Of a DNA stretch of 64,000 nt, positions 1,478-8,471 are shown piece after piece; position 1 is the first letter of the stretch; each line of letters begins with the position of its first letter. The notes beneath the pieces were generated by a model. It did not search any database. It saw only the letters and a list, made by a program, of their open reading frames with translations, and had not been told where the DNA came from. The stretch spans positions 3,803 to 67,802 of the forward strand of contig JADJSK010000008.1 of NCBI GenBank assembly GCA_016711705.1, read 5' to 3'. A program made the translations under genes and the position numbers. The DNA is from Candidatus Brachybacter algidus (GTDB lineage: Bacteria > Bacteroidota > Bacteroidia > Chitinophagales > Saprospiraceae).

Positions 1478-1631
1478 GTTAGAAAGTGAGAATGTGAGAA
1501 AGTGAGAAGGAGTCCACCCCCTTGGCCCCCTCCGAAGGGGGACATGTGGAGAGCCGCATGGTTTTGTTTATTATTCAATGTTTTAATATTAATGGAGTGA
1601 GAATGTGAGAAGGTGAGAAGGTGATGAGGAG
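1478..1631 (+). repeat. Arm-core-arm composite: GTGAGAAN octamer array (1478-1510), GC-hairpin element (1511-1545 plus conserved tail to about 1575), second octamer array (1594-1631)
   Basis: Read directly: gttagaaagtgagaatgtgagaaagtgagaagg / agtccacccccttggccccctccgaagggggacat... / ggagtgagaatgtgagaaggtgagaaggtgatgaggag. Confidence 0.9.
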
Positions 1632-1982
1632 TTAAACAAGTTTTTTTATTAATCCTGATAACATACTTTTGATATGATTCAATTTTCTGAACATCTCAGG
1701 ATCTTCTTTTATATATCCGATTCTATTTGATAAAATATATTGGGTTTCCAGTTCTGCGCAGGATCCAAGGGAATAAAAAAGAAACCTTTTAAATTCAGGA
1801 CCACTTTGCCTGGCTGCCCCTTCTGCTATATTAGACGGAATAGATATGGCGCATCTTCTCATTTGTGAGGAAAGTCCATATTTCTCATCTAAAGGTAAAC
1901 ATTTTGTGATTTCGTAAATGCTGGTAACTAAATCCATAGAAACTTGCCAGACCACGAGGTCTTTGTGGGATGAAATTTTCAT
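1632..1982 (-). CDS. Four-helix-bundle protein (TIGR02436, 23S rRNA intervening-sequence protein family)
   Basis: 116 aa with family hallmarks DLVVWQ, EKYGLSSQMRRCAISIPSNIAEG and GSCAELETQ. Confidence 0.9.
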   Translation of the reverse strand: MKISSHKDLVVWQVSMDLVTSIYEITKCLPLDEKYGLSSQMRRCAISIPSNIAEGAARQSGPEFKRFLFYSLGSCAELETQYILSNRIGYIKEDPEMFRKLNHIKSMLSGLIKKLV

Positions 1983-2066
1983 TTTAATTAAAATTTGGTG
2001 ATCAAAAACACTAAATTAAACATTATTCACCAAACCCTATAATAAATAACAAAAATATGCTTTTGA

Positions 2067-2106
2067 CCTCCCTTCTCACCTCCTCACTTCTTCACCTTCT
2101 CACCCC
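2067..2106 (-). repeat. Inverted copy of the GTGAGAAG array (reads cttctcac on the plus strand); partner arm of 1594-1631
   Basis: cctcccttctcacctcctcacttcttcaccttctcacccc. Its reverse complement aligns to 1594-1631 at about 28 of 38 positions (hand alignment). Confidence 0.85.
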
Positions 2107-2108
2107 TT

Positions 2109-3147
2109 CTATTCCAAATCTTCCAAACTTAATCTCTCCCCTTTTTCAATATTCCTCTTCACTTTCTTTCCCAACACTTCTTTAAAAAACTTCGGATGCA
2201 ATCCAAATCCCGGTCCTGATCGAACGGATATTCTTCTCAGTTAAAACTTCACCCTCAGCAATATTCTCTACTATATAAAGCGATCGACTAAAATCCTTCC
2301 CTTTTTTCTGCTTATCAGTCAGGTTATAATCAACTTTCCCTATTGCCTTTTCAGCTTCCCGGACTGCTTTTACCATCTCTGTGAATTCTGCTTCATTCAT
2401 GGAGAAGGATGAGTCAGGACCACCGATGGAACGGTCGAGGATGAAGTGCTTTTCAATTATTTTAGCTCCAAAACATGTAGCTACGACAGGTGCAGTGCTT
2501 CCGATGGTGTGATCCGACAATCCGACAATCATATTAAATCGTTCAGCGAAATCTTTTACCATGATCATATTTGCTTCTTCGATGGGAGCCGGGTAGGAAG
2601 ATGTGCATTTTAATAATGCGATATTTTCATTGCCCATGCGCTCACAAGCGTCGATGGCAAGTTCGATGTCTTCAAGTTCTGCGATGCCTGTGGAAATGAT
2701 GATGGGCTTTCCTTTGGATGCCACCAATTCTATCAATGGAATGTCTGTTATTTCAAAGGATGCTATTTTGTATGCCGGAACATTCAGACTTTCTAATAAT
2801 TCAACAGCTGTTGGGTCAAATGGCGATGAAAAACATTCTAATCCTTCTTCTCTTGCGACGGCGAACAATTGTTCGTGCCACTCCCACGGTGTAAATGCTT
2901 CCGAATACAAACTGTGTAAATTACGTCCTTCCCAGATGGTGCCTTTGATCAAAAAGTCATTCTTCTTTGAATCAATTGTGATGGTATCAGCTGTGTAAGT
3001 CTGAAATTTAATTGCGTCCGCACCGGCTCGTTTTGCGGCACGGATAGTTTCAATAGCTGTGTCCAGACTACCGTTGTGATTGGCGGATAGCTCAGCTATG
3101 ATGAAGACGGGGGAGGTGGAGGATATGGTGTAATTGCCTATTTGCAT
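2109..3147 (-). pseudogene. pseI: Pseudaminic acid synthase (NeuB/PseI family), one frameshift near the 3' end as sequenced
   Basis: ORF 2182..3147 has FIIAELSANHNG and the NeuB core. The SAF-domain tail SIRPGFGLHPKFFKEVLGKKVKRNIEKGERLSLEDLE is in another frame after about 2212-2217. The true stop is at 2109-2111. Confidence 0.85.
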
Positions 3148-3156
3148 TTTTATAAA

Positions 3157-3271
3157 GGTAGAAGTTAGAAGTTAGAAGGACGCTTTGGATGATATTTTAC
3201 TTTTTCTTAAAAGAGGATGCTTAAGGTTTAACAAAAGTTAGAAGGTGAGAATGTGAGAATGTGAGAAGGGG
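3157..3271 (+). repeat. Arm-core-arm composite with TTAGAAG/GTGAGAAT arrays (3157-3179 and 3236-3271) around a 56-nt core
   Basis: ggtagaagttagaagttagaagg ... agttagaaggtgagaatgtgagaatgtgagaagggg. Confidence 0.85.
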
Positions 3272-5964: not shown

Positions 5965-7139
5965 TATAGTAATTGTCGATGGTGTTGATGACGTATTGTT
6001 GTTCTTCTGAGGTCAATGTCGGAAACATAGGTAGACTAATGCAATGTCGGTAATATTGCTCTGAATGTGGCATATCTCCTTCCTTCCATCCAAATTGTTT
6101 GTAATAAGGCATCAAATGTGTAGGTATATAGTGGATCTGAGCAAAAATATTATGTTCCCTAAGATGTTTGTATAGACCTAATCTATTCTCTGCTTCAATC
6201 ACATACAAATGATAAGCATGACCTTCGATGACACCCGATTGACCTAGGATATATGTTTTTTCCTGAAATGCATTTTCATAAATTCTCGCTATTTCTCTTC
6301 TTCTTTTAATCCTTCTTCAGCTCGATTTAATTGGCTTAAGCCGAGGGCAGATTGAAATCTGTGATTCGATAATTGTATCCTAGTTGTTGCAATTCCATAT
6401 ACCATCCGGGTATTCATCGCCTCCACCACTGGCGAATTCCATAGAATTAGTATAATTATCATCTCCTTTAGTAATACCATGGGAGCGCAATCTATTTAAT
6501 TGCTTGTACAATTCTTCGTCATTGGTAGTGATCATCCCACCTTCCCCGCAAGCAATGTGTTTGACAGGGTGGAATGAAAATATGGCAAGTTCAGCAAATT
6601 TGCCATTTCCGCACCATTGTTCAACGCCATTTGTGTCTTTAAAATACCCTCCGGGAGCATGACAGGCATCTTCAATGATCCATAAACCGTATTCATCCGC
6701 TAATTTTCTAAATGCTTGCAAGTCCACTGCTCTTCCCGCAAAATCCACTGGAATAATTCTTTTGTAGTTCCCCTCATGGTCATTTTCTAATATCTTTCTT
6801 ACAGAATTAATATCAAGCAAATAAGTTTCAGGATCTATATCTCCAAAAACAACTTCTCCACCACAATATCTAACGCAATTAGCAGAAGCAGAAAAGGTAA
6901 TCGGAGTAGTTATTACCTTGTCTCCCGGTTTTACATCCAGCGACATTGTACAAAGATGCAGTGCGGCAGTGCCATTAGAAACTGCTACGCGTATTTGCTA
7001 CCTATGTATTTAGCAAAGCATTTTCAAACTCACCGATTTTAGGGCCTTGAGTCAGGTAGTCTGATTTCAGCGATTCTGTTACAGCTGCGATGTCGTCATC
7101 TGTTATATTTTGGCGTCCGTATGGAATGGGGTTTCTCAT
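5957..7139 (-). pseudogene. pseC: UDP-4-amino-4,6-dideoxy-N-acetyl-beta-L-altrosamine transaminase (DegT/DnrJ/EryC1 family), at least 5 frameshifts as sequenced
   Basis: The conserved protein is recoverable only by frame hopping: MRNPIPYGRQNITDDDI...GEFENA | FAKYIGSKYA | VAVSNGTAALHLCTMSLDVKPGDKV...GGGDEYP | GWYMELQQLGYNYRITDF | QSALGLSQLNRAEEGLK | RRREIARIYENAFQEK...YVIEAENR...DNYYNG. Breaks are near 7015, 6989, 6408, 6354 and 6305. Confidence 0.85.
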
Positions 7140-7168
7140 GTGAGTGTTGTGCTAATTATTTTTTTAGA

Positions 7169-7321
7169 AGTCCACCCCCTTGGCCCCCTCCGAAGGGGGA
7201 CATTCGTGTGGCCTCATGTTTGTTGTTATTAGTGAAAGTTGTACTAATAAGGATGGTTATATTTTTGTAATAAATATGATCGTATGATGTCCCCCCTTTG
7301 GAGGGGGCTAGGAGGTGGACT
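7169..7321. repeat. Two inverted copies of the GC-hairpin element (7169-7203 and 7287-7321), separated by 83 nt
   Basis: agtccacccccttggccccctccgaagggggacat versus atgtcccccctttggagggggctaggaggtggact (near reverse complements). Confidence 0.9.
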
Positions 7322-7386
7322 CGTTTGCACCTTCAAAGTTATTCAACATTTAGGTGGACCAACCAATTTACTATCCAATACTTCGC

Positions 7387-8397
7387 TTAAATCAATTCAT
7401 CCACATGCTCCCTGATCAATTCGCGCAAAGTCTCCACAGTCTCCCATTCCGTATTCTCCCCACTATTATATGAAAATCCAGGTTGTACGATTTTTGCATT
7501 GAATTCCTTGATAAATTCATCCAATTTCCAATTGTGTGTACTGGGAATAATAGTATAATATTTTCCTAAATCATAGGTATAAAATGAATCGGATGAAGTG
7601 ATCATTTCTTCATGCACTTTTTCTCCGGGGCGTATACCTACAATTACTTGTTCACAATCTGGACCAACTGCAGTAGCTACATCTGTGATTCTGTAAGATG
7701 GTATTTTGGCACAAAGATCTCACCTCCCCAGGCATGCTCCAGGGCATGAATGACCATTTCAACCCCTTCCGTCAGGGAAATATTGAAACGGGTCATGTTA
7801 GGATCAGTTATAGGTAATTTTCCTTCTTTTTTCTTTTTAATAAAAAAGGGAATCACTGAACCGTTTGAACCCATTACATTGCCATAGCGCACGACAGAAA
7901 ATCGAATTGGATTATTTCCTCGGATATTATTTGCTGCAACAAACAATTTATCTGAGGTAAGTTTAGTAGCACCGTATAAATTGATAGGTGCACAAGCTTT
8001 ATCTGTTGATAATGCCACAACACGCTGCACCGTTGTTTCAAGACATGCATGGACGACATTTTGAGCTCCTACGACATTGGTTGCGATGCATTCGTCTGGA
8101 TTGTATTCTGCGATATGCACATGTTTCATTGCCGCGGCATGGATGACATAATCTATGCCTTTCATTGCTCTTACCAATCGATCCTTGTCTCGCACATCAC
8201 CGATAAAAACCTGATCTGTGGATATTTCTCCGGTGGATAATCTTGAGCCATTTGAAATTGCTTTTGCTCGTCTCTGGAAAATATCACAAGTCGTGAAATG
8301 TCAGGATGATTCTTAAAGATATATTGGGTCAAAGCCTTACCAGGGAGCCGGTGCCACCTGTGATGAGGATTGATTTGTTAGAGAAGGAAAAGGTCAT
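7387..8397 (-). pseudogene. pseB: UDP-N-acetylglucosamine 4,6-dehydratase (inverting), 3 frameshifts as sequenced
   Basis: Frame hopping gives MTFSFSNKSILITGGTGSL | [45 protein letters not shown] | [30 protein letters not shown]...GGEIFVPK | [36 protein letters not shown]...HVDELI. Breaks are near 8340, 8205-8209 and 7704-7707. Confidence 0.85.
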
Positions 8398-8415
8398 GGT
8401 TGTTTGTTTTTTGAT

Positions 8416-8471
8416 GGTCCACCCCCTTGGCCCCCTCCAAAGGGGGATATGCGTTTGGCCTCATATTTAAG
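8416..8471 (+). repeat. GC-hairpin element copy with conserved tail
   Basis: ggtccacccccttggccccctccaaagggggatatgcgtttggcctcatatttaag. It lies 18 nt from the pseB ATG. Confidence 0.9.

Follow-up and report, generated by a model that had tools for sequence, protein, structure and literature searches.

Hairpin copies upstream of rfbA, pseC and pseB

We analysed a 64,000-nucleotide (nt) stretch of the Candidatus Brachybacter algidus genome (positions 3803–67802 of contig C8, hereafter the window), in which a short GC-rich hairpin element recurs upstream of genes of a surface-polysaccharide locus. The genome comprises 4.69 Mb in 16 contigs, with a G+C content of 36–37%. All window genes from position 10554 down to 608 lie on the minus strand, and their Pfam matches identify a GDP-mannose dehydratase and an epimerase, PseB, PseC, a cytidylyltransferase, a GNAT protein, NeuB/PseI, a 23S-IVS four-helix-bundle protein and RfbA. 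The gene names given in an earlier, sequence-based note on this DNA (the original prediction) are borne out: rfbA matches NTP_transferase, a pseC fragment matches the DegT aminotransferase family and a pseB fragment matches Polysacc_synt_2. The 34-nt core of the element, GTCCACCCCCTTGGCCCCCTCCRAAGGGGGAYAT, was found by a pattern search of the window without mismatch at 1512–1545, 7170–7203 and 8417–8450, all on the plus strand, and it had no match across 100 dinucleotide shuffles. The three same-strand hairpins described in the original prediction are thus real, although its coordinates were off by 1–3 nt. A covariance model of the 67-nt unit formed by core and tail (R1, built from 33 genomic copies) scored 71–73 bits at 1509–1575, 7167–7233 and 8414–8480 on the minus strand, which is the transcript sense.

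The first copy (1509–1596, minus strand) is a solo. Its exact core at 1512–1545 lies within an R1 match of 71.1 bits (1509–1575), BLAST homology continues to about 1594, and the tail and internal half reach about 1596. An octamer array of GTGAGAAN lies on either side of it, and the rfbA ATG follows 46 nt downstream. The second copy (7167–7233, minus strand; exact core 7170–7203; 73.1 bits), 30 nt upstream of the pseC ATG, is the sense, start-proximal arm of a complete tail-to-tail inverted pair of 152 bp (7170–7321, inner spacing 85 nt). The antisense, stop-proximal arm of this pair is degenerate and lies on the plus strand at 7260–7323 (40.4 bits, core at about 7288–7321). The pair, which resembles a transposable element of the miniature inverted-repeat kind (MITE) or a doublet of repetitive extragenic palindromic sequences (REPs; the doublets are known as REPINs), is contained in the 247-nt spacer between pseB and pseC (7140–7386). 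The third copy, again a solo (8414–8480, minus strand; core 8417–8450; 73.3 bits), precedes the pseB ATG by 19 nt. A diverged member with a longer loop (CCCCCUUGUUUGAGGGGG) is found at 63523–63589 on the minus strand (42.5 bits). The inverted and the diverged copy had both been noticed before, and the R1 scores confirm them; neither these two nor the three exact copies are expected by chance. As the start codons are read at 1465–1463 (rfbA), 7139–7137 (pseC) and 8397–8395 (pseB), the placement of the three copies upstream of these genes stands, whereas the distances originally given as 45, 29 and 18 nt become 46, 30 and 19 nt when counted from the outer GTCCAC end.

Read in transcript sense, the unit consists of an A-rich stretch with TATGAGG at its end, a segment that is always 12 nt long but free in sequence, and (A)TGTCCCCCTTYGGAGGGGGCCAAGGGGGTGGAC. 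The conserved tail reported earlier is therefore genuine and corresponds to TATGAGG, 12 variable nt and the core. Within the core, a 6-bp hairpin (CCCCCU/AGGGGG) with a UYGG loop is followed by the G-rich tail CCAAGGGGGUGGAC, and the minus-strand RNA reads CCCCCU-UYGG-AGGGGG and then this tail, as had been claimed. The hairpin is kept in 96.9% of alignment cells, with a compensatory change from C–G to U–A in 11 sequences and one A–U pair. The C-rich arm can alternatively pair with the G-tail over 12 bp; this second pairing is preserved in 89.6% of cells and tracks the same C-to-U change. Three positions changed jointly between the two subfamilies; this joint change represents about one or two evolutionary events and is suggestive only. 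Solo copies fold no better than shuffles on either strand (z from −0.5 to −2.0), and the RNA of the whole pseB–pseC spacer has a computed fold that is one long hairpin (−81.1 kcal/mol, z = −6.3). We also considered a conserved outer helix, TGAGGCC/GUGGAC, which is present in the folds of two copies alone; it is not conserved in the alignment and was rejected. After the hairpin, the sense strand reads CCAAGGGGGUGGAC and the antisense strand ACAUUCGUGUGG. Neither orientation carries the U-tract of an intrinsic terminator, and neither a terminator role nor the attenuator role proposed in the original prediction is supported. The G-tail AAGGGGGUGG resembles a Shine–Dalgarno (SD) sequence when compared with the 3' end of the genome's 16S rRNA (...GGAAUACCUCCUUU), and it is too distant from the ATGs for normal SD function.

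A repeat family in short intergenic spacers

The copies in the window belong to a family that has spread into short intergenic spacers across the whole genome. There are 30 copies within 7 mismatches of the core, 72 in an nhmmer search (E < 0.1) and 80 matches to R1 (E ≤ 0.01); these copies are related by descent, and their counts overstate the number of independent events. In a gene model based on crude open reading frame (ORF) calls, on an assembly that carries homopolymer indels, 65 of the 72 nhmmer copies are intergenic. The family occurs in three arrangements. Some copies are solos, such as the first and third window copies. Others form tail-to-tail inverted pairs of about 152 bp with their GTCCAC ends outward, and eight such pairs have an inner spacing of 78–85 nt. 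In the third arrangement, the element is the 3' part of a 165-bp unit found in tandem arrays, such as the six units between convergent genes at C2:325999–326920 and the further arrays at C3:44833–45065, C7:10916–11148 and C2:828961–829685. These 165-bp units have the stem CCCUCU/AGAGGG, upstream of which lie AATGAAr heptamers and then a conserved box, GGCTATTTyTGArCATT. This box resembles the −7 promoter motif of Bacteroidota.

The genes next to the copies are functionally unrelated and include leuC, metG, an OsmC-like gene and genes for a metallophosphoesterase, a Ser/Thr kinase and a dynamin-like GTPase. A common regulon can therefore be rejected, and the specificity for one operon or pathway implied by the original prediction is not supported by neighbours as diverse as leuC, metG, the kinase and the GTPase. 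A preferred distance to start codons also fails to appear. The next ATG lies 18 to 280 nt away, the gaps on the stop side are similar, and solos lie in co-directional spacers (24/36, 67%) just as often as expected from the share of such spacers in the genome (1816/2693, 67%). These matching shares and the wide range of gaps show that the closeness of copies to start codons follows from the shortness of the spacers.

The one-orientation placement of the solos, by contrast with their distances, is a real property of the whole genome. Solos flanked by co-directional genes share the orientation of these genes in 22 cases and oppose it in 2 (binomial p = 3.6e-5), the diverged window copy at 63523–63589 being one of the two; two further co-oriented copies sit inside spurious ORFs. 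Inverted pairs supply both orientations by construction. The original prediction was to count as refuted if copies across the genome showed no preference of orientation or distance relative to start codons; for orientation, the 22:2 ratio shows that they do. Solos are thus kept almost solely in the orientation that gives the G-rich strand to the mRNA. When orientation was split by replication strand, as judged from GC skew, there were 10 co-oriented and 2 anti-oriented copies at lagging-strand genes, and 21 and 7 at leading-strand genes. An insertion bias linked to replication, as is known for IS200/IS605 elements, was therefore rejected, since the bias follows gene direction on both replichores.

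Several copies adjoin other repeats. Repeat arrays (GTGAGAAN, AATGAAr) are next to several copies, and heptamer or octamer arrays occur downstream of 6/72 and upstream of 13/72 copies, against a background of 2.5%. A general association with these arrays is modest and mostly owed to the tandem units. Intergenic arrays of heptameric direct repeats have been described in Beggiatoaceae, Cyanobacteria and Bacteroidetes (PMC4679880). Like the element, they are found between genes in sense orientation, close ahead of start codons and in SD-poor contexts, but they are short, AT-rich and unstructured, whereas the element is a single GC-rich hairpin unit, and the two are independent families. At four loci (C14:13462, C4:993, C2:829331 and C1:1334418), the hairpin is truncated immediately behind AGAGGG, where a further conserved repeat (tgaacgac...gtgcaagtc..cttgcacaaagtgaagtcagaac...) takes over. 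A group II intron or another structured RNA was considered for these truncated hairpins and rejected, with no Rfam match and no reverse transcriptase nearby. At C3:25406 and in the congener G002, the 5' arm is replaced by a different junction sequence (gaagtgaatgaccctg). Part of C14 (C14:13462–14064) is duplicated on the small contig C4 (C4:430–1016) with differing homopolymer lengths, which means that the assembly holds redundant, error-bearing pieces.

Distribution among relatives and the surrounding locus

The family is patchily distributed. With the R1 model, the 80 copies of this genome compare with 9, 6, 1, 0, 0, 0 and 0 in seven congeners and with 34 in a member of another genus of the family (G011), and no copies were found in seven further genera of the family or in nine other families of the order. 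In a survey of the phylum with a 22-mer pattern, allowing up to 2 mismatches, a single one of 400 sampled genomes matched. The complete genome of the congener G006 has a pseB–pseC spacer of about 133 nt, against about 260 nt here, and this spacer contains heptamer repeats and no GC-rich hairpin.

Metagenome contigs were searched for an exact 22-nt part of the core, which gave 41 loci. Most of these are the same sites of the same species, with flanks that are 95–100% identical, and are not independent support. The remaining comparisons reveal differences between strains. Locus L155 is the pseB–pseC junction of a diverged strain and holds the same inverted pair; its sense-arm core is identical at 33/34 positions, the tail at 60% and pseC at 66–71%, and the antisense arm is degenerate both there and here. 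In L179 and L169, rfbA is preceded by a full pair, and the octamer array is missing. Locus L156, which is about 73% identical, has a full 150-bp pair at a junction that in our genome holds a 13-nt heptamer spacer (5271–5283). Differences from this genome at two other sites are seen in L149 and L159, and L154 has two tandem units where there is one here. Full pairs of about 150 bp are also present in L155, L156, L169, L179 and the congener G002, and relatives differ in the presence or absence of copies, as is characteristic of MITEs.

Identity to these relatives often shifts abruptly across the element, for example from 100% upstream to 91.7% downstream in L174 and from 93.8% to 71% in L155. 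The unequal identity on the two sides means that the copies sit at mosaic junctions of the polysaccharide locus. The locus as a whole is a mosaic produced by recombination, and its breakpoints fall at the repeats or close to them. Abrupt changes of identity across the element were also seen in loci L150 and L181.

Other features of the locus lie close to the copies. The GTGAGAAN array on the rfbA side of the first copy (1478–1510) and the second array (1597–1631) belong to a separate repeat family that is not part of the hairpin element and is very abundant, with dozens of loci genome-wide (BLAST). The second array lies between the first copy and a 23S-IVS-type four-helix-bundle gene (1632–1982; PF05635, 123.8 bits), and GTGAGAAN arrays bracket this gene. 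The genome has 11 such genes; a link between the element and these cassettes was rejected, as just 1/11 has a copy nearby. GGGTAAT/GAGTAAT heptamers (5266–5295) bridge the cytidylyltransferase gene and the next gene, covering the stop codon of the former and the start codon of the latter. Both pseB (7350–8397) and pseC (5957–7139) are broken into several ORF pieces. Comparison with an intact pseB of 330 aa on a 93%-identical metagenome contig (L157) revealed three single-base deletions in the window, which sit in or beside homopolymers (CCCTT, GGTTTTTT and CCAAAAA). These frame breaks are more likely to be long-read assembly errors than true pseudogenes. The terminal 8-mer of the antisense arm (7314–7321) has a second copy, GTCCACCT, on the minus strand at 7352–7359, 30 nt beyond the end of the arm. 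The segment between the two is absent from the strain of L155 and is an indel bounded by an 8-nt direct repeat. Finally, a sub-threshold Rfam match to Acido-Lenti-1 at 5178–5222 on the plus strand (29.8 bits against a threshold of 37, E = 0.0016) falls within a coding region and is probably due to chance.

Nature and possible role of the repeat

The copy number, the three arrangements, the patchy distribution, the strain differences and the unrelated neighbours all fit a non-autonomous repeat of the REP or MITE kind. Like REPs, the element is a short GC-rich extragenic palindrome in many copies (a 34-nt core with a 6-bp hairpin, intergenic in 65/72 cases). Like REPINs, it forms inverted doublets of constant spacing (8 pairs, 78–85 nt). 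Like MITEs, it has terminal inverted repeats on a non-coding unit of less than 300 bp (7170–7321, 152 bp). The REP-like nature that had been suggested for the hairpins is thereby supported. We therefore consider it probable that the copies are lineage-restricted, non-autonomous GC-rich hairpin repeats that are co-transcribed with their neighbours and are subject to selection at the RNA level for the G-rich sense orientation. As the bias of the solos tracks transcription and not replication, we infer that selection acts on the transcript. An antisense copy would place a C-rich, G-poor tract (GUCCACCCCCUUGGCCCCCUCC) into the mRNA, which could load Rho and be polar, and such copies would be lost; in inverted pairs, the long stem may mask the C-rich tract. 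A second explanation, which does not exclude the first, is that the sense hairpin and G-tail bring a benefit, by stabilising the RNA between cistrons or by serving as a site of processing there. Once transcribed, the complete pseB–pseC pair would fold into a double-stranded RNA stem of about 34 bp, a likely site for RNase III. A stabilising or processing role of the hairpin, among those put forward in the original prediction, is a candidate.

Co-transcribed MITEs of bacteria include the Correia/NEMIS elements of Neisseria and ERIC/IRU. The element shares with these a non-coding length of about 150 bp, long terminal inverted repeats, a position between cistrons and an RNA hairpin that RNase III could cut. 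It differs from them in that neither a target-site duplication nor a parent insertion sequence came to light, in that each arm has its own internal hairpin, and in that half-elements predominate.

A number of observations weigh against a non-autonomous repeat under RNA-level selection. In the genome (within 4 kb) and in 25 metagenome loci, no transposase was found inside an inverted pair of cores, so that a parent element as expected for a MITE was not found. No target-site duplication could be defined, and no shared direct repeat flanks the full copies. There is also no clean pair of empty and filled sites at nucleotide resolution among G006, L149, L159 and L156, whose spacers are too diverged or have been replaced. 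Orthologous copies in diverged strains have cores that are identical at 33–34 of 34 positions, compared with 60–83% identity for the tail and 66–85% for the neighbouring genes; this hints at function or concerted evolution and not at neutral junk, although the comparison is biased because the loci were picked by an exact match to 22 nt of the core. The orientation bias is not clearly reproduced in G011, where the ratio is about 10:5; as head-to-head pairs at contig ends make up most of the copies there, this ratio is uninformative. Within pairs, the better-kept arm is the sense arm in 4/6 only.

The strongest of the rivals concerns the enzyme that moves the element. REPs and REPINs with a REP-associated tyrosine transposase (RAYT) are known from E. 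coli, Pseudomonas and Stenotrophomonas, where the palindromes carry GTAG or CGTC tags (PMC3733652). If the 34-nt cores were REPs, the 152-bp doublets would be the mobile unit, moved in trans by a RAYT, that is, a Y1 transposase of the IS200/IS605 type. Much of the anatomy agrees with this: a short GC-rich extragenic hairpin, singlets along with inverted doublets of fixed spacing, no target duplication seen so far, a species-restricted sequence and co-transcription with flanking genes. The genome has five strong and three weak Y1_Tnp (RAYT/IS200-like) matches, so that REP/RAYT biology operates here. However, each of the five strong RAYT-like genes (C12:100965, C2:439785, C12:140552, C1:970020 and C1:60245) is flanked by its own hairpin family (CCCCTAAAGGGG/CCCCATTGGGGG, CCCCGGATGGGG, TTGGCCTTTCGACCAA, GGTGCGCTGCACC and GGGTTTCAACCC) and none by the element, which also counts against the reading that we prefer, as does the lack of a RAYT beside any copy, on the same contig, in G011, G002 and G003. 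The genome of G006 has three RAYTs and zero copies. Nor is there a GTAG or CGTC tag next to the hairpin foot, the outer end being GTCCAC and the inner end ACGnATGTC in the alignment. Its copy number of about 80 and the strong transcription-sense bias of its singlets further set the element apart from the known REPs and REPINs, and the five RAYT/REP systems of this genome have other sequences. We regard mobilisation by a RAYT as unlikely. The GGTGCGCTGCACC family, which flanks the RAYT at C1:970020, is also present in the window at about 24590–24743.

A slightly less likely possibility is that the element is not junk but a mobile, sense-restricted RNA module with a bistable fold, its C-rich arm being paired in one state with the neighbouring G-arm and in the other with the G-tail. 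A G-to-A change accompanies the C-to-U change in both pairings, so that one SD-like G-tract would always stay exposed just upstream of a cistron.

Of known systems, the nearest to the element is the metagenomic RNA motif Whalefall-1 (RF01762; Weinberg et al. 2010), which was rated as 'RNA: certainly; not cis-regulatory' (PMC2864571). A whale-fall metagenome was its only known source, and its description was that of a small RNA, not of a dispersed repeat (PMC2864571). Rfam gave no match above threshold for the element, and the Whalefall-1 model matches three copies at 22–24 bits against a gathering threshold of 37 bits (E of about 1e-3 per genome), with the best score of 24.2 bits at the third window copy (8414–8480). 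The two agree in strand sense, in a first hairpin with UGUC...CA flanks and a UYGG loop, whose stem differences are compensatory, and in a 3' tail that reads AGGGnGAGGAC in Whalefall-1 and AGGGGGUGGAC in this element. Both occur in AT-rich genomes, and seed members of Whalefall-1 are inverted pairs on single contigs with their GTCC ends outward (PMC2864571 supplement). Unlike Whalefall-1, all matches here lack its second hairpin (22 nt, often with a CUUG loop), which is deleted, and the element is not a member of the motif as Rfam defines it. Given the shared hairpin, tail and inverted-pair layout, we regard the two as related and as one kind of repeat.

The rating of Whalefall-1 as an RNA would also agree with a promoter or small RNA module, which we rate as no more probable than the bistable RNA. 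The 165-nt form would then bear a promoter of the Bacteroidota type (TTG-N15-TAtTTTTG; GGCTATTTTTG box) and yield a small RNA or a 5' untranslated region that starts upstream of the hairpin, with the hairpin as a 5' or 3' stabiliser. In tandem units, the box GGCTATTTyTGArCATT, which matches TAnnTTTG, lies 55–60 nt upstream of the hairpin, and both the six-unit array between convergent genes and the sense bias of copies fit such a module. However, the three window copies and most solos are without the box, and their tails show no TAnnTTTG. The spacing from TTG to the box is 15 nt, which is short for the phylum, where 19 nt is usual; a terminator-like U-tract is missing, and no Rfam match reaches the threshold.

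An appreciably weaker case can be made for a mobile upstream mini-ORF, in which a short peptide would start at a conserved ATG located 15 nt ahead of TGTCCC, end 0–25 nt from the next ATG or overlap it, and couple ribosomes to the next cistron, in a phylum without SD initiation. This ATG stands at exactly −15 after an A-rich leader in about two-thirds of the copies, the 12-nt spacer is fixed in length, and an in-frame stop occurs in 1 of about 18 cases compared with about 4.5 expected. The frame stops 16 nt before rfbA, 25 nt before pseC and 6 nt before leuC, extends into pseB by 17 nt and gives TAAATG at C12:137701. On the other hand, the compensatory change in the hairpin alters the peptide non-conservatively (P to S and G to R), which points to constraint on the nucleic acid rather than on the protein. 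The ATG is kept in antisense arms too and is therefore part of the subterminal block of the repeat. The copies moreover share descent, so that these counts are not independent, and AT-rich spacers are expected to contain stops shortly behind the core.

Least probable of all is an operon-specific cis-regulator of the pse and rfb genes, a translation modulator or internal attenuator, which was suggested by the presence, within 7 kb, of three copies of the same sense that each directly precede a start codon and by the ability of the G-tail AAGGGGGUGG to pair at 9 contiguous positions (2 of them G–U) with the 16S 3' end ...AUACCUCCUUU, but which the census has already largely refuted: the element also precedes unrelated genes and occurs between convergent ones, is missing from the corresponding spacer of G006 and has 0–1 copies in five congeners, carries no U-tract, has its SD-like tract 19–46 nt or more from the ATGs, which is too far, and occurs in a genome without a CsrA gene. 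A related candidate, a CsrA sponge with two GGA motifs about 18 nt apart, was rejected, as PF02599 has no match in the genome.

The hairpins are thus not a dedicated regulator of pseudaminic-acid or rhamnose genes, which removes a false lead. To the Whalefall-1 motif, so far an orphan in Rfam, the element adds a first relative in an assembled genome, and this suggests that Whalefall-1 is an arm of a MITE- or REPIN-like repeat rather than a free-standing small RNA. If the bistable RNA module were true after all, the element might serve as a ribosome standby site, as a coupling device (possibly via the mini-ORF) or as a cap that protects mRNA, in a phylum without canonical SD initiation, and Whalefall-1 would belong to the same functional class. 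For a co-transcribed repeat of the REP or MITE kind, the 22:2 sense bias of the solos, independent of the direction of replication, is unusual, and it makes the element a simple test system for how Bacteroidota operons tolerate or use GC-rich insertions. In the surface-polysaccharide locus, the copies mark mosaic junctions and may act as substrates for recombination.

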